58,511 nucleotides of DNA, taken from the sequence record DRR723986_9330; one strand, 5' to 3'. The notes beneath the pieces are model-generated. The model worked only from the letters and a program-made list of their open reading frames with translations, was not told where the DNA came from and ran no database searches. A program made the translations under genes and the position numbers. This document shows, one piece after another, positions 15,698-46,783 of the stretch (its first letter is position 1; each line of letters opens with the position of its first letter).

Positions 15698-16432
15698 TTA
15701 AATTTCCCACAAGTCATCTTTAGCAACCCATCCTTTATTCCCATTGATTTCAATTTGTTGCCATTCACCATCTTTACTGATGAGTTTAATTTTAGCCCCA
15801 GCTCCTAAACTGAAAGATGTTTTAGCGTCCTCAATTGGTGACATTTTCACATCTGCTGTTTTCGAAATAATTACGCCTTCTGTTCGGTTGTTTAATCGTG
15901 CCTTCTGCATCCCCGCAAAAATGACCGAACTGAACATGATGACTGCACAAATGGATGCCGATAAAAGAATGATGTTTTTACGTGAGCCCGCTTTTGAGCG
16001 CAGGAACAATATCACTAAAAAGGCCAAAACGAATGAACTTATTATGCTCAAATACGACCAAAAGTTGATGTTTTCTGAATACAATAATCCATCAATCCAA
16101 TGACCTAGGCCTTGTCGCGAGATATCTATTTTATCTATTGTTTGAGCGTTTACAAATTCTAAATTGAACAGTGCATCCTCATGGTCAGGGTCAAGTTTTA
16201 ATGCTGATTCATAGGCCCAAATAGCTCTACCTATATCCTTGTTGCGGTAATGAGCGTTGCCTAAATTATAGTACAAATCGGCACTGTGTTTTTCATCTGC
16301 AATGATAGCAGAATAGGCATCTATCGCCTCAGTATAATTGCCCTCTTCATACAAGTTATTAGCGTTTTCAAATGACCCCTGTCCGTAAGAAACAGTGGAG
16401 ATTAAAAAGATATGGATGATGAGCGCTTTCAT
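15698..16432 (-). CDS. batE: BatE-like TPR/SH3 protein
   Basis: TPRs (LYYNLGNAHY, YESALKLDP), two TM segments, C-terminal SH3b-like ..KGWV; last gene of the bat operon. Confidence 0.8.
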   Translation of the reverse strand: MKALIIHIFLISTVSYGQGSFENANNLYEEGNYTEAIDAYSAIIADEKHSADLYYNLGNAHYRNKDIGRAIWAYESALKLDPDHEDALFNLEFVNAQTIDKIDISRQGLGHWIDGLLYSENINFWSYLSIISSFVLAFLVILFLRSKAGSRKNIILLSASICAVIMFSSVIFAGMQKARLNNRTEGVIISKTADVKMSPIEDAKTSFSLGAGAKIKLISKDGEWQQIEINGNKGWVAKDDLWEI

Positions 16433-18148: not shown

Positions 18149-18961
18149 TTACCAGTCTTTCTTTTTAGGTGAGCCGTATCCAACCCGCTTGTTCTTGTCT
18201 AATCGCTCTTGTAATTCTTTTTCTCTCTTGTAATAAGTATCTAATATGCGTTGGATATCATCTTTAGACATTTTGTTTCCAAATTGTTGACCCTGTCCTT
18301 CTTTCTCATCTTGATTCTCCTCTTTGTTACCTTCTGAGTTTTGTTCAGATTGTTCATCATTTTCCTCTTCATCATTTTGTTGCTCTTCTTGATCTCCATT
18401 TTGATTCTCTTCTTCGTCCGAGTTGTTCTCGTCATTTTGGGAATCTTGGCTGTCATTTTGATTCTCACTGTCGCTTCCTTCACCGTTTGAGTTGTCATTG
18501 TTCTGTTCAGAGTTTTGCTCTTGCTCGTCTTGTTCTCTTTTTAAACTCAAGGCATAGGCTAAATTATATCGTGTTTCTTCATCTGAAGGATTCAATCTCA
18601 ATCCATTTTTATAAGCTTCAATTGCACCTTCCAAATTTTGACTCATCATGTGTGCGTTACCCATATTGTGGTAAACTTTCGATTTATCAAAAGATGTTGG
18701 TCCTAGATTCACAATTTTCTCATAAGATTCAATGGCTTTAGGATAATCTCCTAATCTATACAAAGCATTTGCTAAATTATAATTGGCTTTAAAATTCAAT
18801 GGAGAATAACTGACAGCATCTTCATAATAACTCAAGGCATCTTCATATTGGCCCTCATTGAATTCTATGTTGCCATAGTACATCAAGCGTTTCACATCAT
18901 CCTGTGCATGCAAAATACTGCTAATACAAACACTCCATATGATAAGTAAACTATACTTCAT
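18149..18961 (-). CDS. batC: BatC TPR protein with Q/E/N/D-rich linker
   Basis: TPRs (YNLANALY, HNMGNA, TRYNLAYA), acidic low-complexity tract, terminal KKDW; start MKYSLLII at 18961. Confidence 0.85.
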   Translation of the reverse strand: MKYSLLIIWSVCISSILHAQDDVKRLMYYGNIEFNEGQYEDALSYYEDAVSYSPLNFKANYNLANALYRLGDYPKAIESYEKIVNLGPTSFDKSKVYHNMGNAHMMSQNLEGAIEAYKNGLRLNPSDEETRYNLAYALSLKREQDEQEQNSEQNNDNSNGEGSDSENQNDSQDSQNDENNSDEEENQNGDQEEQQNDEEENDEQSEQNSEGNKEENQDEKEGQGQQFGNKMSKDDIQRILDTYYKREKELQERLDKNKRVGYGSPKKKDW

Positions 18962-20105
18962 AAGCTTGTAATTTATGAACGACACCTGATCGTTTTTCAG
19001 TGAATAAAAATTCGGCAATCAGGAGTAACAATCCTATGCCTAAAAACCAATGATACTGGTCATCATAATCAGTATACATAGAAGTCTCCATTTCTGTTTT
19101 TTCAATTTGTCTGATCGATTCCATCAATCCTTCCATGTTCACGAATGATCCTTCAGCTCTTGTATAGGAACCACCACCTGCTTGCGCTATATTCATCAAC
19201 ATTTCTTCATTGATTTTTGTGTAAACCGTGTTACCGCGGTCGTCTTTTTTCAATCCAACGATTCTTCCGTCTTTGTATTCCGGAATCGGGGTTTCATTCG
19301 TTGTACCCATTCCAACTGTATTGACCATGATGTTGTTTTCCAAGGCCGCACTGGCCATTTCTTCTGCACTTCCTTCATGATCTTCACCGTCTGACATAAT
19401 GATGATCGCCTTGTTCACTCCATTATTCATGTCAAAATTCTTGATGGATTCATCAATGGCTAAAGAAATGTTAGTTCCCTGGTTGGTCATCATTTCTGGT
19501 CGAATTGATTGCATAAACATTCTTACAGCTCGGTAATCTCCTGTTACAGGTACCTGTAAATGGGCATCTCCTGCAAAGACTAAAATCCCTACTTTATCTC
19601 CATGTAATTTATGCAGCATTCTGTCAATTGACATTTTGGCTATAGATAATCGATCTCTTTCAGGATCTAAATCGAGCGCACGCATTGAATTGGAGATATC
19701 CAGAGCAATCATGATTTCAATTCCTTCTGCAACTGCCGTAGATTTTCCTTTTCCGTATTGTGGATTTGCCAATGCTAAGATTAAAAATGCCAAACCGTTG
19801 CGGTAGAAAAAGAATTTCGCAAAGGTTTTTAAGGTGGATAATGGTGAAGTGAGATAGGGGAGTAGACGTGTTTCTGCCAAGGTATTTAAGGATTTATTCT
19901 TCCATCTCAATACCACAAAAAAGCCCAAAACTGTTATAGGAACTAAACATAAACCCCAAAGCATGAATTCATTTTCGTAGCGAAATGCCTCAACGTCTTG
20001 CAAATAAAAATACAAACTAAAGAAGGCCGTCCAGAAAATGGCTTCCCAGATGATAACTGCAATTGCGAGTTCTTTTATTTGATATTTATGTTCAGATTTT
20101 GCCAT
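18951..20105 (-). CDS. batB: BatB vWA domain protein
   Basis: ALANPQYG, MIDAS DISNS, FAGDA, QGTNI, SDGEDHE. Confidence 0.88.
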   Translation of the reverse strand: MAKSEHKYQIKELAIAVIIWEAIFWTAFFSLYFYLQDVEAFRYENEFMLWGLCLVPITVLGFFVVLRWKNKSLNTLAETRLLPYLTSPLSTLKTFAKFFFYRNGLAFLILALANPQYGKGKSTAVAEGIEIMIALDISNSMRALDLDPERDRLSIAKMSIDRMLHKLHGDKVGILVFAGDAHLQVPVTGDYRAVRMFMQSIRPEMMTNQGTNISLAIDESIKNFDMNNGVNKAIIIMSDGEDHEGSAEEMASAALENNIMVNTVGMGTTNETPIPEYKDGRIVGLKKDDRGNTVYTKINEEMLMNIAQAGGGSYTRAEGSFVNMEGLMESIRQIEKTEMETSMYTDYDDQYHWFLGIGLLLLIAEFLFTEKRSGVVHKLQAYEV

Positions 20106-21127
20106 TAAGGAATGCTCTTCAATAAAGTGTTTTGTAAAATTTTATGACCAAGAATTAAAATGATACCCATCAACAAAAAGCCATAGTACTTTTCTGGAGG
20201 ACTGATTTTAAAGTCAAGGACTTTTACTTTTGATTTTTCCAGTTCATCTATTTCGTTGTAGATGTTTTTTAATTCTGTTTTATTTTTAGCACGATAGTAT
20301 TTACCACTGGTCATATTGGCAATTTCCGTCAATAATTTTTCATCAATTTCAACAGGGATGTTAGAAGACATTCCTCCAAATAAAGGCATTGGCGCAGTTC
20401 CGTCTTGACCAATTCCAATAGTATAAATAGTGACACCCATTTCTTTAGCTACCTGTGCTGCTTTGATCGGCATGATATCTCCACTGTTGTTTTGCCCATC
20501 TGTCATGAGGATAATCACCTTGCTTTTTGCATCACTTTCAATCAAGCGATTCACAGCTGTGATTAAACCAACACCAATGGCCGTTCCGCCTACTACTTGG
20601 CCCGGTTGCACTTTATCCAGTAAAGAAATTAACAAGTCGTGATCAGTTGATAGAGGCGCTTGTGTATAGGCTTCCGCTTCATAAACTACCAGACCAATTC
20701 TGTCAGTTGGTCGGTCTTCAATGAATTGTGTAGCCACTTCTTTCGCGGCCTCAAGTCTATTAGGTTTCAAATCTTCAGCAAGCATACTTCCTGAAACGTC
20801 CATAGATATTACGATATCAATTCCTTCAATGTTTTTCTTGTTGAACTCATCTATATCTTGAGGAGCGTGAGGTCGCGCAAGAGCCAAGATCACAAAACTT
20901 ATCCCGAATAAAAACAGGAATAAATTCAAGTACCTAAACAATGCAGTCCAGTTAAATTTTTGTTCCCCAAAATTGGCTGTTGAAGGCAAATTAATTTCTT
21001 TAAAGCCTTTAGATTCTCTATACAAGAACCATATCACAACACATGGAATTAGTAAAAACAGCCAGAATGCTTCTTTTCTCACATATTCAAATGCAAATGG
21101 CGTTATGTCTGTCCACCAATTACCCAT
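20105..21127 (-). CDS. batA: BatA vWA domain protein
   Basis: ALARP, GIDIVISMDVSGSM, PNRLEAAK, GTAIG, TDGQNNSG; likely start ATG 21127. Confidence 0.9.
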   Translation of the reverse strand: MGNWWTDITPFAFEYVRKEAFWLFLLIPCVVIWFLYRESKGFKEINLPSTANFGEQKFNWTALFRYLNLFLFLFGISFVILALARPHAPQDIDEFNKKNIEGIDIVISMDVSGSMLAEDLKPNRLEAAKEVATQFIEDRPTDRIGLVVYEAEAYTQAPLSTDHDLLISLLDKVQPGQVVGGTAIGVGLITAVNRLIESDAKSKVIILMTDGQNNSGDIMPIKAAQVAKEMGVTIYTIGIGQDGTAPMPLFGGMSSNIPVEIDEKLLTEIANMTSGKYYRAKNKTELKNIYNEIDELEKSKVKVLDFKISPPEKYYGFLLMGIILILGHKILQNTLLKSIP

Positions 21128-22079
21128 TTTGATTGTCCTGATTTGAGTTAGCAATTTCCTCGAGCTTTGTTTTTTCTACAAACTCAATAGACTTGTACAG
21201 TGAATCTTTTCCTTGCTCTTCGCCTGCTTTCATCTTTGCGAATTTGATCATATCCGCTTGGCTCAATAATTTTCTTAAATGCAGTTTATCTGCTTCTGAA
21301 ATGTCTGCATACTTTAAATCTTGAATGATTTCTCTGGTAGTATGCTCAACCGCTTTTATACCGAATCGTTGCTCTAAATACAATCTCACGGTATATGTCA
21401 GGTCAGAATAGTAGTCTTTTTGTTCTAAAGATTTCCAAGCTTCTTTAGTTTCTAACTCTTTCAACGAAGCTAATGCTGTGATGTGTGCAGGAGTTGGTGG
21501 AACATAAGGAACATGTTCTTCTTGTTCTCGATTTTTAATCAATTTGACTAAAAAGAATATGGCCACTAGTCCACCTGCGCCGGCCAACCAAGGCCAATAA
21601 GCCGCGAACCAATCTTCGAGTTTTTCAGAAAAAGTATAATCAACTGCATAGTTTTCTTTGATATCAACAATGCCTTTACTGGTGTCTATTTCAACGGTTT
21701 CTACTAGCAAAGTTTTAGGATAGGTGTAGTAAACCGAATCTCCTAATTCAATTCCAATTGCAGGAATAATGTGGTATCCTGGCTCAAAGCAAGTAATATT
21801 AAAATCTTGTTTTCTTTGATAAATTCGATTGACAGAATCTACCAATTCTTCGTAGTCAACAGTTCGGTCTGTGATTTCAATATGCTCAGTAAATTCATCA
21901 TTGAATTGTGGCCATCCAATTAAAATCTCACCTTGGTCGTTGGTGTATTCAATTTTTATAGTCATGGGAATTTGTTCCCCGATTCGCATTTTATCGAATC
22001 CAAGTTCAAGCGCTGCTTGTTGGCTAAAAGAAACAAAGCAAAAGCTACAAATAAATGATATGGTAACTAGTACTCTCAT
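21120..22079 (-). CDS. Bat-operon membrane-anchored protein between DUF58 and batA
   Basis: Signal peptide, Ig-like N-terminal domain, TM, YYSDLT..R.YLE.RF...A.E.TT.E, ADMIKFAK. Confidence 0.8.
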   Translation of the reverse strand: MRVLVTISFICSFCFVSFSQQAALELGFDKMRIGEQIPMTIKIEYTNDQGEILIGWPQFNDEFTEHIEITDRTVDYEELVDSVNRIYQRKQDFNITCFEPGYHIIPAIGIELGDSVYYTYPKTLLVETVEIDTSKGIVDIKENYAVDYTFSEKLEDWFAAYWPWLAGAGGLVAIFFLVKLIKNREQEEHVPYVPPTPAHITALASLKELETKEAWKSLEQKDYYSDLTYTVRLYLEQRFGIKAVEHTTREIIQDLKYADISEADKLHLRKLLSQADMIKFAKMKAGEEQGKDSLYKSIEFVEKTKLEEIANSNQDNQNG

Positions 22080-40326: not shown

Positions 40327-43287
40327 TTATTGAATTCTAAAATCATTATTCAGGTTTTCAACTCTTGATGTTGGAGTTTGTCTTCCTTTAGTGATTCGGT
40401 TAACATTTACAATTAAATATTGATGCAATTCTGAGATCATGATGCGCTTGTCCTGATTCAAATCAGCTTCGCCGGTTTTTAAGCCTCTCAGCAGCGAGTA
40501 GGTAAACACGCCGTTGCTCCATTCTTCTCCTTCCATAGCAAATTCACCACCTCCAGCACTTGAAATTACAATTGATCCATTACTTTCTCTGATATCGGCA
40601 AATGCCATTTTAGATAATTCGAAAGAGTTAACATCATTTACATTTTTTACTGTATTTCCCACGGCTCTGAAAACTAAGTCGGCATCAGAAGTAGTTGTTG
40701 CTGTGGTGTCTACTACAACTTCTGTTTTATCAATTTCTCCAGAATGACAAGCGTCAATGAACATGAGTTTTTTAAGGCACTTTGTGTTATCTAATAAATC
40801 GTCAAAAAAGTCAATTGGTATTCCTTTGTTTTCAGGATGATTAAAATCCATGTCGTGGCTTGCGATATAATAATTTAAGTCTGCATCCAGCACCCCATGG
40901 CCCGCAATAAATAACAATATCACATCATTTTCATTGACATTTTTCACGAAGGATTTTAGTTCTTTTACATTATTTTTTGTGACCTGTTCATTCACCATCT
41001 TCTTCACAAAAACCTGATCAAATTCATCCGATTTAGAAAAATATTTGACGATATCATTGGCATCTTTTTCAGCAAAATTGAGGTCAAATGCTGATTGCTG
41101 ATATTTCGAACATCCTAACGAAATGATATGTAGATTGGAGGCGACATTTTCTTGATTGGAAACTACTTTAAAACTCTTTTTAAATGAAGAGATACCTAAA
41201 TCATTTGTAACATAGGCCTGAATTAAATTTTTTCCCGGGTTAATTTTGATGAGTTGATCGTGTTCAAAATAATTGGAATCAATTGGCATTCCTTCACGCG
41301 TGAAAATAGGAACACCGTTAACGAGAATATGAAGCGATTTTAATTCAACTTTTTCGTCAGTTGCTTTAATGCTAATGTTGACGTCCCCGTAATTAGTGCT
41401 GGTACCAGTTTTGTTTTCAACTTCTATAGAAGGTAGGTCTGTTGTGATCTTTAATTCAGATTCGTTCAGCCCAAGTTTTGCAAGACGTTTCTTGTAGGCT
41501 TTCTGATAATTTAAAACGGTCTCTTCAGTAATAAAAGGGAGTTGGTTAAATACTAAATCAGGACGATTGTATACCAAATCGAATTGATCAAACGAAAAAA
41601 GTTGACTGCCAATTGCAAATCCAATATTGTCCAGAGCTCCCTTTGAAGCATAATAGTAGTTGTCGGGTCTTAAATAAACAAAGTCATTGGCACCAAAAGC
41701 ACCGAAAGTTGATAATAACTTCCCGTTTTCGAGACTCCATAATTTTATCATCCCATCCCAACTAGAAGTGGCGACAAAACCGTATTTCTCATTAATGGCA
41801 ATTGAAGTGACATGATCCGTATGGTCAAGCACTATACTGAACTCTTCTTCACTTTTTTTATTTTTTATACTCAATTTTGAGTCGGTTGCTTTAACGAAGA
41901 AATGCTCCGAGTTTTCAGATAAATGGCCGTTGTTCAAAAAGTATGTTTTGGGTAAAATATGATCTTGTCTTAAAGATTTTTCATATTTCCCTACCTTGCC
42001 GGATTGATCCCCCACTTCATTTAATACTACAGTATTTAGCTGAGTATTCCAATTCAATTCTATTGGTTTTACATAATCAAATGCTCCCGCATAAGTAATT
42101 GATTGACGTAATAAGTAAAGTTCAAATTCCGCATTATTTTCATTTACCTTTTTTATCGAGGTCAGCAAGTATTCCCAGCCATTTTGAATTTGATGTTGGC
42201 CTAATTTTGCTCTGTTTGATACTGAGGTGTTAGTAATGAGGTTCGTTCTTCTGATAAACCCATTAGAAAATCCGATCACTATTTCATCTTGGTCTGCTGA
42301 AAAGGTGATATCGTTTATTCTGTATATACTGGCCTGAAAACTCTGAATGAGTTCATGTCTTTTTAAATCCCATTCTATGATTCGTTTATCACTTCCACCA
42401 GTCATCATTCGGTCTCCGTCCTTATTCACTACAATTGATTTAACTGCGCCTAAATGTGCTTTCAAAGTGATGACTTTTGAATAACTGTGCCTGTTATAAA
42501 CTACCACTTCGCCTTTATCTGTTCCGCCAATTAAATATGTACTACTTAAACTTACAGAATTGAAACTGTTCCATTCGCTTTTATTACTTACCCCTTCAGT
42601 TTTATTTTGGTCGATATTGTACCTTATGATTCCGCCATTCGTTGTACTGACAAAAATATTTTCTTCTTTTTCATCAAATATGATGGATGTAGCAGAAGCC
42701 TTGAAGTGTCCTATGATGGCCTGAGTTTTAAGATTTACGACTTGTGTATTTTCGTCATGAATTCCACCTATAGCGATTTTACCTCCATTATTGGTGAAGG
42801 CTATAGAAGTAAATCGTTTGTTACTAAACACTGCAAGTTTATTCAGGTTTTTGGATTCAATTTGATAGGTACTTAAGTGCTGACTGCCCAAAGCTAATAC
42901 GCTTCCGCTCTCATTCATAGCCATGCAACTGATGGGGAAATTAAATTTTTGTTGGTCTATTATAGCACCAGAGGCGATATCCCAAATTATCAATGAACTG
43001 TCCAGAGAAGTAGAATATAGAATTTCCTTTTCTGGATGAAATGCGATTCCAGTTATTGGTTCTGAATGTCCATTTAAACTGATGTATTGTTTACTTGATT
43101 CTAAATGCCATAAGGCGATATTGTTATCCGCTGAACCACTTGCCAAGAGCGTTTCGTCTTGATTATAAGTCAAAAAGTTAATCTCAGCCGAATGCCCAGT
43201 TTGAACTGAAAGTCTTACATCTTGGCCAGTAGACACTGTAGAGATGAACAAAAGTAGAATCCAACAATTTTGAAATAGGGTTTTCAA
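40327..43287 (-). CDS. Exported WD40-repeat protein with C-terminal caspase (peptidase C14) domain
   Basis: Signal peptide; WD40 repeats (GH..I..L..LASGSADNNIALW; H...V.S....SSWDGMIKLW); Ig-like linker; catalytic dyad FIAGHG and FIDACHSG; NGVFTY, QTP. Confidence 0.9.
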   Translation of the reverse strand: MKTLFQNCWILLLFISTVSTGQDVRLSVQTGHSAEINFLTYNQDETLLASGSADNNIALWHLESSKQYISLNGHSEPITGIAFHPEKEILYSTSLDSSLIIWDIASGAIIDQQKFNFPISCMAMNESGSVLALGSQHLSTYQIESKNLNKLAVFSNKRFTSIAFTNNGGKIAIGGIHDENTQVVNLKTQAIIGHFKASATSIIFDEKEENIFVSTTNGGIIRYNIDQNKTEGVSNKSEWNSFNSVSLSSTYLIGGTDKGEVVVYNRHSYSKVITLKAHLGAVKSIVVNKDGDRMMTGGSDKRIIEWDLKRHELIQSFQASIYRINDITFSADQDEIVIGFSNGFIRRTNLITNTSVSNRAKLGQHQIQNGWEYLLTSIKKVNENNAEFELYLLRQSITYAGAFDYVKPIELNWNTQLNTVVLNEVGDQSGKVGKYEKSLRQDHILPKTYFLNNGHLSENSEHFFVKATDSKLSIKNKKSEEEFSIVLDHTDHVTSIAINEKYGFVATSSWDGMIKLWSLENGKLLSTFGAFGANDFVYLRPDNYYYASKGALDNIGFAIGSQLFSFDQFDLVYNRPDLVFNQLPFITEETVLNYQKAYKKRLAKLGLNESELKITTDLPSIEVENKTGTSTNYGDVNISIKATDEKVELKSLHILVNGVPIFTREGMPIDSNYFEHDQLIKINPGKNLIQAYVTNDLGISSFKKSFKVVSNQENVASNLHIISLGCSKYQQSAFDLNFAEKDANDIVKYFSKSDEFDQVFVKKMVNEQVTKNNVKELKSFVKNVNENDVILLFIAGHGVLDADLNYYIASHDMDFNHPENKGIPIDFFDDLLDNTKCLKKLMFIDACHSGEIDKTEVVVDTTATTTSDADLVFRAVGNTVKNVNDVNSFELSKMAFADIRESNGSIVISSAGGGEFAMEGEEWSNGVFTYSLLRGLKTGEADLNQDKRIMISELHQYLIVNVNRITKGRQTPTSRVENLNNDFRIQ

Positions 43288-43654
43288 GGGCTAGTTTTTA
43301 TCGAAGATAATTATTCTATTCTATTTGGTGTTGTCTAAATCGATTTACTTGACTTTTGAAACAGATGCGATTACGAAAAAAGCCAGCAAGATTAGGTTTG
43401 AAATATATGTTTAGTTGAAATATTATTTTTTTTTGGATTAATTTTTACAATTCATGGAGTTGATATTGTCAATAAAATCAATGCTAATATTGTTTTTAAA
43501 TGTTTTCATACGTAAAATAAACGTAAACAAACGGATAAACAACGATTAAAAAAATCAACTCTCCATTACTTTGCCCTGTCGAAACGATCGGCGAACAAAT
43601 AATTTACAAACTGGCGAGCCATTAAAAAAGAAGGTGAGCACAAAAACACACATT

Positions 43655-44005
43655 ATGAACAATTTAAGAAACAAAGTACAATTGATCGGAAACTTAGGTC
43701 TTGCACCTGAAATCGTTTCATTCGAGAACGGAAACAAATTGGCGAAAATAAGATTAGCTACCAATGAGTTTTATAAAAACGCGAAAGGCGAAAAAGTAAA
43801 AGAGACACAGTGGCATTCATTAATTGCATGGGGCAAACAAGCAGATATATTTGAAAAGTACATTAAAAAGGGGCAAGAAATTGCGGTTGAAGGCAAGTTG
43901 GTGACACGTTCGTACGAGACAAAAGAAGGCGAGAAAAGATACAGAACAGAAATTCAGGTTTCTGAATTGTTAATGCTTGGCGCTAAAGAAGAAGTTGAGG
44001 GGTAG
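43655..44005 (+). CDS. ssb: Single-stranded DNA-binding protein, short form (copy 1)
   Basis: NKVQLIGNLG, LATNE, TQWH..AWG, KGQEIAVEGKL..RSY, TEI; ATG 43655; no acidic DDLPF tail. Confidence 0.92.
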   Translation: MNNLRNKVQLIGNLGLAPEIVSFENGNKLAKIRLATNEFYKNAKGEKVKETQWHSLIAWGKQADIFEKYIKKGQEIAVEGKLVTRSYETKEGEKRYRTEIQVSELLMLGAKEEVEG

Positions 44006-44022
44006 GATGTTCATTCCGGAAA

Positions 44023-44053
44023 TCGATTTTCGTTCTCCGATTTTCGATTTTCG
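44023..44053 (+). repeat. Left arm: tandem CGATTTT heptamers
   Basis: T-CGATTTT-CGTTCTC-CGATTTT-CGATTTT-CG. Confidence 0.9.
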
Positions 44054-44070
44054 GAATTTATTTTGAAGTT

Positions 44071-44433
44071 ATGAACGACTATAAAACACTTGATGTGTGG
44101 TCTCAAGGTATGAAAGTTTCAAGAATGATTTATAAAAACACGCGATTGTTTCCTAAAGAAGAACGGTTTGGTTTGACCAATCAAATTAGGAGGGCAAGCA
44201 TTTCGGTAGTGTCTAACATTGCTGAGGGTTGTGGAAGAAGACATAAAAATGACCGACTGCAATTCTTTTATATCTCAAGAGGTTCGCTATATGAGTTGGA
44301 ATGTCAACTATATATCGCAAAAGACTTGGGATACATTGGAGAATCTGCCTTCGAACTTACGAAACTCAATATTCAGAAGGCCAAAATGATCCTAAACGGA
44401 TTTATAAAACACAATAGAAATTTAAATTATTAA
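44071..44433 (+). CDS. Four helix bundle protein (23S rRNA IVS-protein family, Avd-like)
   Basis: L.VW, FPKEERFGLTNQIRRASISVVSNIAEG, F..ISRGSLYELECQL. Confidence 0.93.
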   Translation: MNDYKTLDVWSQGMKVSRMIYKNTRLFPKEERFGLTNQIRRASISVVSNIAEGCGRRHKNDRLQFFYISRGSLYELECQLYIAKDLGYIGESAFELTKLNIQKAKMILNGFIKHNRNLNY

Positions 44434-44444
44434 TACAACTTAAT

Positions 44445-44475
44445 CGAAAATCGAAAATCGAATAACGAAAATCGA
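44445..44475 (+). repeat. Right arm: tandem AAAATCG heptamers, reverse complement of the left arm
   Basis: CG-AAAATCG-AAAATCG-AATAACG-AAAATCG-A; pairs with 44023-44053 at 29 of 31 positions. Confidence 0.9.
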
Positions 44476-44491
44476 AACAAAAACAAACATT

Positions 44492-44941
44492 ATGAACAAA
44501 TTACAAAACACAATCAATTTAATCGGTAGAGCAGGAATCACACCAGTAATTAGAACTTTTGAAAATGGCGTAAAACTGGCTAAGTTTTCATTAGCAACCA
44601 ACGAAATCGTAACTGAAGTAAACGGTAAAAAGAATGAAACGCAGTGGCATAACATTGTAGCATGGGGTAAAAAGGCCGAGCTGATCGAAAAGTTTGTAAA
44701 GAAGGGGCAACTAATGGCGGTAGACGGTAAACTGGTTAACAGGTCGTTTATGGCGAATGATGGCTCAAGACGAAAAATGACGGAAATTCAAGTCAACGAA
44801 ATACTATTAATCAATGCCAATAAAAAAGGAGATACTCCAACTCCGTCTCCGGCTCAAATCAAGGAGATGAAAAAAGGCCAAATCAAACAATTAAACGCTA
44901 AAAATAGCGAGCTGAATAAGCAGCAGAAAAAGGCGAGTTAA
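44492..44941 (+). CDS. ssb: Single-stranded DNA-binding protein (copy 2) with basic C-terminal tail
   Basis: LIGRAG, FSLATNE, TQWHNIVAWG, KGQLMAVDGKL; tail rich in K/Q. Confidence 0.88.
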   Translation: MNKLQNTINLIGRAGITPVIRTFENGVKLAKFSLATNEIVTEVNGKKNETQWHNIVAWGKKAELIEKFVKKGQLMAVDGKLVNRSFMANDGSRRKMTEIQVNEILLINANKKGDTPTPSPAQIKEMKKGQIKQLNAKNSELNKQQKKAS

Positions 44942-44966: not shown

Positions 44967-45023
44967 AAGCCGGTGCAAATAAGTAATTTGGTAGAAGATC
45001 ACTTATTTCACCGGCTTTTTTTT
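44967..45023 (+). terminator. Intrinsic terminator after ssb copy 2
   Basis: AAGCCGGTG(C)AAATAAGT ... ACTTATTTCACCGGCTT running into a T tract. Confidence 0.8.
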
Positions 45024-45038
45024 GATATGACAACCTAC

Positions 45039-45074
45039 AAAAAAGGGTGCCACGATCGTTATCGCGGCACCCTT
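45039..45074 (-). terminator. Intrinsic terminator of the DUF4397/T9SS gene
   Basis: Minus strand AAGGGTGCCGCGAT-AACG-ATCGTGGCACCC-T6. Confidence 0.8.
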
Positions 45075-45106: not shown

Positions 45107-46783
45107 CTACTTTACTGTATGCTTTAGTTGATTAACATTATTATCAAATGAAACTGTAATAATATACGTTCCACTTTCTAAGTCACTAGTTGAAATTACT
45201 TGTCCATTGTTTATCGTTCTTCTTTCTAAAATCTTTCCAGATAAATCTGTTACGGTCATTTCTGATCCATCTTCAATTCCATTTATTTGAAAGTTTCCTT
45301 CAGAAGGATTAGGAAATACAGCCAATTCTGAGTTGTATTCTTTTACACTCGCAAATGCTGTTGGTAACTCAACCATTGCTCCGCCTCCTGGAACTGCTGC
45401 CCACAATCCGAAAGAAGCTCCGTTAGCATTCATTGAAGGATCTACAAATCCACTTGCGACTACTACAATGGCAGAATTGGTTAAAGATAGCCCAGCTAGT
45501 GGTGCTGAATAAGAGAAAAGAATGCTTGAGCCTCCTTGATCCCTCACTTCAATGATATAATCATTGTTAATTAGTTCTAAATAGCCAGCAAAATCTCCAT
45601 AAGAAGCATCATCAACAAGATTACCCGCTGAGGCCTCATTAATATCTACGGTCGGAGCGTCTGTTGACCCATGAAAAACAAGGACGTCAGTGTTTCCAGT
45701 TACGTTAGAGGTTTCTTGTCCCATGTCAAAAACATCTAGAGAGAAGGCTGGTGCAGGCGTGTATCCTGCCGGACTCAAAATACCATTAGCGATTGCTACA
45801 TAAGTTTCGCCTGTTTCTAAAGTTACAGGGACAGTCGCAACACTTTGAGCTACACTTGTACTAGTGCCAGGTGCAATATCAATTGTATTTTCAACTTCGG
45901 CATCAATATCGATATAGCTAGACGCCGTTCTAAAATTAAAATCATCAATCAATAAGTCACCATTTAAATATACATCAACAGTTGCAGCCAAAGCATCTGC
46001 AGAGTTGTGAATTACTTGTATTCTTGCCTCTGATTTTGGAAGTTCTACTAAGTCTCCTCCAGCAGGAAGAGCAACCCATAGTCCAAATTCTTCCCCATTA
46101 CTATTATTTGAAGGATCAAGAAATCCGCTAGCTACAACAACTACTGCTTCGTCATCAAGACTTAAAGTTGATAAAGGAGCTTCATAACTTCTAACTACTG
46201 TCATACCTGAAGCGTCTGTTACGTTCAAAACGTAATCGTCTGTTGGTAAATTCAAGTATCCCGCGAAATCACCATAACTGGCATCATTTACCAAAGGTGT
46301 CATTGAGCCTGGAGTAGCTACATCTACCATTGGTGCGTCTGTTGACCCGTGAAAAACAAGAACGTCTGTATTTCCAGTTGTAGTCGCTGCTTCTTGACCC
46401 AAAGCAAATACATCTACTGAAACTGGTGGGGCCGGAGAGTAACCAGATGAACTCAGGATTCCGTTGGCGATTGCAACATATGTTTCTCCATCAACAACTG
46501 TTAAAGGAAAAAAGGCCAGGGATTGAGATGACATTGTTGAATTCGAAGGCGCAATACCTATTTGAACTGTTCCGGGAGCAACATCCACAAATGGAGAGGC
46601 CGTTCTGAATTCGAAATCGTCAAGTAACAGTGTAGTTCCCGCCCAAACATCAACAGTTTGTGTAGCTGCGTCAGGAGAATTATGAATGATTTGCACTCTT
46701 GCTTGTGCGTTTGCTGCACCCGATACAGCTAAAATGGCTGCCGTAAGTGCTAGATTTTTAAAAGTGTAATTGTTAAATTTCAT
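45107..46783 (-). CDS. Tandem DUF4397-like domain protein with T9SS type A C-terminal sorting domain
   Basis: Two ~225-aa repeats (AR.Q.IHNS.DA...VDV; VLVFHGSTDAP.VD); CTD VFPNPS..DLSGK..LESGTYII. Confidence 0.88.
   Translation of the reverse strand: MKFNNYTFKNLALTAAILAVSGAANAQARVQIIHNSPDAATQTVDVWAGTTLLLDDFEFRTASPFVDVAPGTVQIGIAPSNSTMSSQSLAFFPLTVVDGETYVAIANGILSSSGYSPAPPVSVDVFALGQEAATTTGNTDVLVFHGSTDAPMVDVATPGSMTPLVNDASYGDFAGYLNLPTDDYVLNVTDASGMTVVRSYEAPLSTLSLDDEAVVVVASGFLDPSNNSNGEEFGLWVALPAGGDLVELPKSEARIQVIHNSADALAATVDVYLNGDLLIDDFNFRTASSYIDIDAEVENTIDIAPGTSTSVAQSVATVPVTLETGETYVAIANGILSPAGYTPAPAFSLDVFDMGQETSNVTGNTDVLVFHGSTDAPTVDINEASAGNLVDDASYGDFAGYLELINNDYIIEVRDQGGSSILFSYSAPLAGLSLTNSAIVVVASGFVDPSMNANGASFGLWAAVPGGGAMVELPTAFASVKEYNSELAVFPNPSEGNFQINGIEDGSEMTVTDLSGKILERRTINNGQVISTSDLESGTYIITVSFDNNVNQLKHTVK

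Follow-up and report, generated by a model that had tools for sequence, protein, structure and literature searches.

A four-helix-bundle gene between inverted heptamer arrays in an ssb1-ssb2 spacer resembles the ORF-bearing intervening sequences of 23S rRNA

Intervening sequences (IVS) that bear an open reading frame (ORF) sit in helix 25 or helix 45 of 23S rRNA, and Leptospira is another carrier besides Coxiella. A comparable layout is known from the REP/REPIN-RAYT systems, in which a single-copy gene is flanked by inverted copies of a dispersed, genome-specific repeat and RAYT is an enzyme of the Y1 (IS200/IS605-like) transposase family. In the Coxiella IVS at helix 45, the S23p ORF lies within a 28-bp stem formed by terminal inverted repeats; tandem GACAGAT heptamers occur in its 5' part in numbers that depend on the strain, and the first repeat is where RNase III cuts (PMC4990558). 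Here we describe an element of similar design in a 58,511-nt stretch of DNA from record DRR723986_9330; this whole 58.5-kb stretch is referred to as the window, and all positions are those of the window. The piece of interest (44,006-44,475) holds a gene for a four-helix-bundle (4HB) protein between two genes for single-strand DNA-binding proteins, ssb1 and ssb2, and the 4HB gene is flanked by tandem heptamer arrays in inverted orientation, which we call the arms.

Tandem heptamers have also been described among bacterial simple sequence repeats (SSRs). The study of Rehm et al. 2015 (PMC4692102) reports GGGAATC arrays in Xanthomonas that are often convergent pairs (70-75 pairs) and mostly transcribed, reads these and the Nostoc GGGGA(C/T)T heptamers as G-quadruplex (G4) motifs, and cites Mrazek 2007 for an excess of heptamers among long SSRs; the terms '23S', 'S23' and 'xcc0516' do not occur in PMC4692102. 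The homology of PF05635, the family to which the 4HB gene belongs, to Avd is stated in a paper on diversity-generating retroelements (DGRs; PMC10053308). A full-text literature search, which lies largely outside subscription journals, returned no paper in which 4HB genes flanked by inverted heptamer arrays are treated as a class.

The two arms were 31 nt long, 391 nt apart in an inverted-repeat search and complementary at 29 of 31 positions (94%). The left arm starts 17 nt beyond the ssb1 stop codon (44003-44005) and 16 nt separate the end of the right arm from the ssb2 ATG, in agreement with a first-pass annotation made from the letters alone. The role of chance was assessed by local alignment of the 150-nt upstream flank with the reverse complement of the 150-nt downstream flank: the score was 52, compared with 17.95 +/- 2.51 in 500 shuffles (maximum 28), corresponding to z = 13.6, and none of 373 controls of the same geometry across the window reached 52 (maximum 28). 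Arrays of the CGATTTT unit were found by Tandem Repeats Finder (TRF) and a motif search at these two arms only within the window. When 43990-44500 was folded as RNA, as the first-pass annotation had suggested, the arms paired in both the minimum free energy (MFE) and the centroid structure, forming 12 + 16 bp around a 3-nt internal loop with the 4HB ORF in the loop. The fold had a stability of z = -3.13, with 1 of 100 shuffles equally stable, and the MFE pairing extended over the ssb2 ATG. The arms were also paired in the folds of the orthologous loci of two relatives, G001 and G006.

The 4HB ORF was assigned to PF05635/TIGR02436, the family first known from rRNA IVS, as had been proposed, since both profiles scored above their curated cut-offs: 121.7 bits (1.9e-35; cut-off 33.8) over positions 1-106 of 106 for PF05635, and 118.3 bits (1.7e-34; cut-off 24) for TIGR02436. 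The protein also matched the solved structure of XCC0516 (PDB 2gsc) at 9.3e-23. Genome-wide statements in this work rest on the nearest genome, G001, whose EngA is 100% identical to that of the window, and on other relatives. Against G001 the ORF showed dN 0.007 and dS 0.10, and against G006 pN 0.18 and pS 0.86; the ORF is under purifying selection and its protein has been kept, with non-synonymous change about 2.5 times faster than in ssb1. Searches with Pfam and NCBIfam found in the protein the PF05635 domain and a sub-threshold match to bAvd (PF22296; 24.7 bits, cut-off 40), and no nuclease, transposase or polymerase domain; the match to NF033474 (24.3 bits, cut-off 80) was likewise below its threshold. 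By analogy with Avd, the 4HB protein is probably a nucleic-acid-binding partner of the heptamer repeats and not a transposase. Every genome of the genus searched had 5-12 PF05635 matches, and 4HB paralogues within one genome bore differing arm units.

The same packaging was found far outside the genus. A search for relatives from a 6-sequence alignment gave 593 confirmed loci, of which the best 80 were kept; by record titles these 80 span about nine phylum-level groups (Bacteroidota, Pseudomonadota, Acidobacteriota, Verrucomicrobiota, Planctomycetota, Cyanobacteria, Patescibacteria, Desulfobacterota and Chlorobi/Ignavibacteria), and 79 were scored, one locus having no stop codon in its stretch. 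The inverted-flank score was at least 30 for 45 of the 79 4HB genes, compared with 5 of 130 neighbouring ORFs in the same loci, and only 4 of the 79 flank pairs reached this value when compared in direct orientation. Relative to shuffles, 53 of the 79 loci exceeded z = 4. The 250 kb of these loci contained 63 arrays of period 7, of which 42 lay within 100 nt of the 4HB gene, compared with none of periods 4, 5, 6, 10 and 11, five of period 8 and two of period 9; the inverted arms of 4HB genes are almost exclusively period-7 arrays. In the armed loci the arm units were lineage-specific, and the median distance was 24 nt from the arm end to the start codon and 8 nt from the stop codon to the start of the following arm.

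The loci also shared an orientation. Where both neighbours were present, they were co-oriented in 64 of 76 loci, and in these the 4HB gene ran in sense 58 times and antisense 6 times, with median gaps of 64 and 52 nt to the neighbours; this bias towards sense within operons fits a dependence on host transcription. The 5' arm, read on the coding strand, had more G than C in 37 loci, more C than G in 4 and equal numbers in 4 (totals of G 510 and C 184, with A and T balanced at 465 each), the CpG-type unit of the window being an exception to this polarity. Two control ORFs directly downstream of a 4HB gene (L108:1941-2804 and L075:1929-2684), both ordinary ORFs, had inverted-array flanks of their own with scores of 86 and 49, so the arrays can bracket other genes that adjoin a cassette.

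Within the genus, the ssb1-ssb2 site could be compared directly. G001 carries the same cassette, with a 4HB ORF 98% identical to that of the window, and G006 and G007 carry an orthologous 4HB gene at the site with 73% and 68% amino acid identity. In the window and G001 the left and right arms carry the units CGATTTT and AAAATCG, and in G006 and G007 they carry CGTGTTT and AAACACG; a CGTGTTT-type array is also present in G002, whose contig breaks off within a right array longer than 200 nt, so that the right arm alone is visible. Both arms have changed unit together between these sister species. A comparison with relatives for an empty site had been recommended in the first-pass annotation, and empty ssb1-ssb2 spacers of 94-121 nt from stop to start were found in G003 of the same genus and in G013 and G016, which represent two other genera. 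These spacers were too diverged for nucleotide-exact insertion boundaries to be set, and no target-site duplication or direct repeat around the arms was seen on reading the window sequence. In the EngA tree, (G008,((G004,G003),((window,G001),(G006,(G007,G002))))), which was built without G005 because EngA was not found there, the carriers of the window's cassette type formed one clade with support 96/94. One insertion in the ancestor of this clade, followed by vertical descent, would be the simplest reading of these sequences. G003 and G005 each had one further armed 4HB gene, located downstream of ssb2.

The arm unit belongs to an array family that extends over the whole genome. In G001, a 16-mer of two CGATTTT units had 133 matches at up to two mismatches, compared with 5 for a reversed control, and the counts for this and other arm units are given in Table 1. 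The unit is dispersed and genome-specific in five of the six lineages tested and private to the cassette in Halomonadaceae. In 20 sampled regions of G001, the CGATTTT arrays were intergenic and stood beside ordinary genes (queF, smpB, recX, an ABC transporter). The arms are hypervariable microsatellites from a genome-wide, genome-specific heptamer-array family and not fixed ends.

Table 1. Occurrence of arm units in cognate and other genomes, counted at up to one mismatch (MAG, metagenome-assembled genome)
Unit	Cognate genomes	Other genomes
CGATTTT x2	G001: 93 (control 4)	G003, G005, G006, G007: 7, 1, 5, 5
CGTGTTT x2	G006: 95; G007: 34	G001, G003, G005: 1, 0, 0
CGTGAAT-CGTAAAT	four Pyrinomonadaceae: 404, 537, 75, 130 (control 0), mostly close inverted pairs	one non-cognate genome: 0
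GGCTCTT x2	two Acidobacteria: 75, 52	eight genomes: 0-3
GACACAA x2	one Chitinophaga MAG: 108	nine genomes: 0-3
GGCAATA-GGCAATG	one Phycisphaerales MAG: 131	nine genomes: 0-7
GTGAGTT x2 (Halomonadaceae)	G042: 9, of which 8 at the 4HB locus; G043: 101, almost all within a single array next to the 4HB locus	three genomes (including Halomonas G044): 2, 1, 0
CCAAACA x2 (second G001 paralogue)	G001: 8 (control 5), not dispersed	G003, G005, G006, G007: 5, 5, 8, 6

Several further properties of the arrays were recorded. Of the solo CGATTTT arrays sampled from G001 (20 regions, L117-L136), about half lay between convergent genes, in spacers of 3' ends or terminators, which is a REP-like placement. In the 10-contig assembly of G006, 14 CGTGTTT arrays were forward and 81 reverse, with nearly all of those within contigs C2 and C6 on a single strand, and this bias may come from the direction of replication or transcription. 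The Vreelandella sedimenti record contains a single, near-perfect GTGAGTT array of about 650 bp and about 90 units beside its 4HB gene (G043:C12:25635-26285), and elsewhere in this genome the unit is nearly lacking. Two 400-kb samples from G003 and G006 held 8 period-7 arrays (3 and 5), compared with 1 for periods 5, 6, 8 and 9 combined; period 7 dominates the tandem arrays in these congener samples, in numbers too few to be related to an armed 4HB gene. Contigs from public short-read runs ended within the arrays at 44049-44053 and 44436-44462, as did the contig of G002. The arrays therefore break short-read assemblies, and copy numbers in draft genomes are lower bounds.

We consider the locus best explained as an IVS-type cassette in an operon spacer, co-transcribed with ssb1 and ssb2, with arms able to form an RNase III-type duplex and with a functional protein that probably binds the repeat; our confidence in this explanation is about even. 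In a common ancestor of one clade, a PF05635 4HB gene would have entered the ssb1-ssb2 spacer in sense orientation, and, presumably having neither promoter nor terminator of its own, it would be transcribed together with both genes. The terminator scan gave no terminator-like site on the plus strand of the ssb1-ssb2 interval. In the transcript, the arrays would pair into a duplex of about 28-31 bp from which the 4HB reading frame is looped out, and this duplex would be a substrate for the host RNase III, the gene for which scored above cut-off in G001, G003, G006 and G007. A cut at this position would free the 4HB message from those of ssb1 and ssb2, by analogy with the 23S rRNA elements for which it has been shown experimentally. 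Among 22 public runs, which were viewed as contigs, one RNA run matched 44439-44477, a match to the repeat only, which is present at other loci too; the contigs examined showed no joints across the cassette and ended at the arrays.

A number of observations weigh against this explanation. The right arm of G001 is longer by 28 nt (four extra heptamers) than that of the window and its left arm has two substitutions, so slippage is one-sided, the arms slip independently, and the register match seen in the window is not conserved. The first-pass annotation had read the element as an IVS-like cassette inside an mRNA, which holds for the PF05635 gene, the heptamer arms and the position outside rRNA within the ssb1-ssb2 pair. 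It had also argued that the degenerate heptamer in the same register of both arms excludes slippage, and this argument is not supported in view of the longer arm of G001, the array of more than 200 nt in G002, and variant units of the CGTT type that also occur within solo arrays elsewhere in G001. Because of these solo arrays, the presence of such a unit in both arms is weak evidence for a compensatory change. In G007, the left arm is degenerate and the right arm perfect, and the MFE fold leaves the arms unused. The CGATTTT arrays in the 20 regions of G001 were mostly solo and unpaired, so the concerted change of the arm unit may reflect genome-wide homogenisation instead of selection on the stem, and a change common to all arrays of a genome cannot be credited to this stem alone. 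Mismatches in the arms of the 45 armed loci had no G·U sense bias (49 sense and 56 antisense transitions, p = 0.56; 127 transversions), and the pairing thus carries no mark of selection on the RNA.

Two more points are of this kind. Three congeners have armless 4HB genes at the ssb1-ssb2 site: those of G005 and G008 are 28-35% identical to the window type and 46% to each other, and that of G004 shows 28-33% identity. They may be replacements, or descendants that diverged fast in place. For the armless type of G008, no closer relative was found in 301 genomes of the order, where the sole match was the gene of G001 itself (35%). In addition, the window's cassette type is single-copy and no relative outside the clade exceeded 54% identity among the best 80 of the 593 loci, so recent movement is not seen.

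The lack of an RNA-strand signature in the arm mismatches is what a partnership at the DNA level, similar to REP/RAYT, would accommodate. In such a partnership, the 4HB protein would recognise its own heptamer as single- or double-stranded DNA, the flanking arrays would be home sites and the dispersed arrays products or targets, and the inverted layout would serve a hairpin or cruciform, recombination or templated copying and not an RNA stem. The genome-specific dispersal of the arm units (Table 1), the different units of 4HB paralogues in one genome and the fixed polarity of the arms relative to the gene all speak in its favour. However, no nuclease, transposase or polymerase domain is present in the protein, the Halomonadaceae unit is confined to the cassette, and that of the second G001 paralogue is not dispersed. 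Causation could also run in reverse, with the cassette arms copying the prevailing repeat of the genome, and the sense-in-operon bias points to a need for host transcription. We regard the DNA-level partnership as a serious possibility that falls clearly short of even confidence; it and the IVS-type cassette can both be true.

The proximity of the right arm to the ssb2 ATG, which is included in the MFE pairing, and the retention of the cassette in one clade would suit a host regulatory structure in which the stem tunes the ssb operon, for instance through processing that fixes the ssb1:ssb2 ratio or through occlusion of ssb2 initiation, with the 4HB gene as incidental cargo. We consider this improbable, given that relatives have an empty spacer or armless 4HB genes at the site, that the same packaging recurs across about nine phyla around 4HB genes whose neighbours are unrelated, and that arm length varies widely among close relatives. 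Less probable still is a coincidence of two ordinary slippage microsatellites in AT-rich spacers that flank a small gene without a functional link. The arrays do slip, and the unit occurs at many other intergenic sites beside housekeeping genes, but its only two arrays in 58.5 kb flank the same 363-nt gene in inverted orientation, and coincidence is contradicted by the contrast between 4HB genes and control genes, by that between inverted and direct orientation, and by the predominance of period 7 among the arrays of the related loci.

A broader proposal can be made from the same observations. PF05635 proteins may be trans-acting partners of bacterial heptamer arrays, each recognising its own unit and encoded between two inverted home arrays, so that dispersed arrays and gene-less hairpins would depend on the protein for spread or upkeep; repeats of the short tandemly repeated repetitive (STRR) type, the Xanthomonas GGGAATC arrays and the ORF-less rRNA IVS would be included. 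Such a system would be REP/RAYT-like, but with an Avd-like protein that is not an enzyme and may instead recruit a polymerase or nuclease of the host. We offer this generalisation tentatively, as a conjecture that is more doubtful than not.

The features of the locus are listed in Table 2. Only generic sigma-70-like matches were found in the region upstream of ssb1 (43288-43654), and their count was not above that of shuffles. The two hairpins between the convergent genes likely form the end of the ssb1-4HB-ssb2 transcription unit, to judge from their sequence and position. They were missed by the simple terminator scan, the first having a 27-nt gap between its arms compared with the 3-8 nt loop of the scan. 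A terminator role for the heptamer arms themselves was considered and dropped on account of the 391 nt between them.

Table 2. Features of the ssb1-4HB-ssb2 locus in window positions
Feature	Position	Strand	Basis or remark
divergent intergenic region 5' of ssb1; presumed promoter region of the putative ssb1-4HB-ssb2 unit	43288..43654	+	upstream neighbour on minus strand
ssb1, single-strand DNA-binding protein, 116 aa from ATG at 43655	43655..44005	+	PF00436, 2e-31
left (5') arm, tandem heptamers CGATTTT / CGTTCTC / CGATTTT / CGATTTT	44023..44053	+	TRF period 7, 4.4 copies
4HB gene, 120 aa	44071..44433	+	PF05635 / TIGR02436; purifying selection
right (3') arm, tandem heptamers AAAATCG x2 / AATAACG / AAAATCG	44442..44477	+	TRF period 7, 5.1 copies; complementary core 44445-44475
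ssb2, second SSB paralogue, 149 aa	44492..44941	+	PF00436, 8.6e-25
two hairpins between convergent ssb2 and 45107-46783(-)	44967-45017 (then T run); 45043-45074 (14-bp stem)	.	repeat search and sequence reading

The ssb1 protein is 84-90% identical to those of congeners at the amino acid level, and the ssb1 and ssb2 proteins are about 50% identical to each other. Their genes have an identical start context, ACATTATGAACAA, at 43650-43667 and 44487-44504, and the tandem ssb pair is kept across the family, including genera without any cassette. Divergent from ssb1, the minus strand encodes a protein of 986 aa at 40327-43287, in which WD40 beta-propellers at the N-terminus are combined with a caspase domain (Peptidase_C14) at the C-terminus. 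Further away, TPR and VWA-domain genes at 18149-21154 (minus strand) gave sub-threshold matches of the BatA/BatB/BatC type, which suggests a Bat (aerotolerance) operon, and another sub-threshold BatC-type TPR match was found at 15701-16432. An Rfam search at the gathering threshold found no rRNA in the window, its sole match being the 3' part of a tRNA gene at 1-54, which is cut by the window edge. The cassette itself had no Rfam match, either in the window or across 10 related loci, apart from one sub-threshold miRNA match among the latter. As the first-pass annotation had noted, neither a transposase nor a reverse transcriptase was present among the profiled ORFs of the window (46 with NCBIfam, 8 with Pfam). 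An insertion of phage or island origin was dropped as a candidate in view of the housekeeping context.

Three puzzles meet at this type of locus, namely the role of the ORF in rRNA IVS, the origin of IVS, and the over-representation of heptamers in bacterial genomes. One genus provides a natural series in which the site is empty, holds the same cassette with one or the other of two heptamers, or holds 4HB genes that lack arms. For annotation, 4HB genes of this kind should not be called 'ribosomal protein S23' or phage elements.

The 4HB protein is related to Avd by its four-helix-bundle fold and by the weak bAvd and NF033474 matches, but these scores are under their cut-offs and neither a reverse transcriptase nor a template/variable repeat pair was found in the window; a DGR remnant was therefore dropped as an explanation. 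Unlike an insertion sequence (IS) or a miniature inverted-repeat transposable element (MITE), the cassette has the 4HB gene as its only ORF and ends in variable tandem arrays instead of fixed terminal inverted repeats. The element itself contains no IS/MITE transposase; no search for a transposase acting in trans from elsewhere in the genome was made. The likeness to REP/RAYT is one of layout only, a gene between inverted copies of the dispersed repeat of its genome: the 4HB protein has no catalytic domain and is not a Y1 transposase, and the repeats are tandem heptamer arrays, with a cassette-private unit in some lineages, and not REP palindromes.

The arrays resemble the heptameric SSRs of Xanthomonas and Nostoc and the STRR of Calothrix in being tandem, intergenic, variable in copy number, dispersed and genome-specific. 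Unlike the Xanthomonas and Nostoc repeats, the unit of the window is AT-rich and cannot form G4. What is added to the heptamer-SSR literature is the link of such repeats to a gene family.

The ORF-bearing IVS of 23S rRNA share several features with the cassette. In both, a PF05635 ORF is looped by a long stem of terminal inverted repeats, and the size class is the same (about 430-450 nt); as in the Coxiella IVS, there are tandem heptamers that vary in copy number, the window and G001 differing by four units. The cassette differs in lying between two ssb genes and not in rRNA. Purifying selection also acts on its ORF, in contrast to the Coxiella ORF, which is reported to be decaying and probably untranslated. 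To these comparisons the locus adds a within-genus series at one site, a genome-wide unit that tracks the arm unit among congeners, a negative G·U test and a register match that is not conserved. The design of the ORF-bearing IVS is thus found outside rRNA, where it is tied to families of heptamer SSRs.

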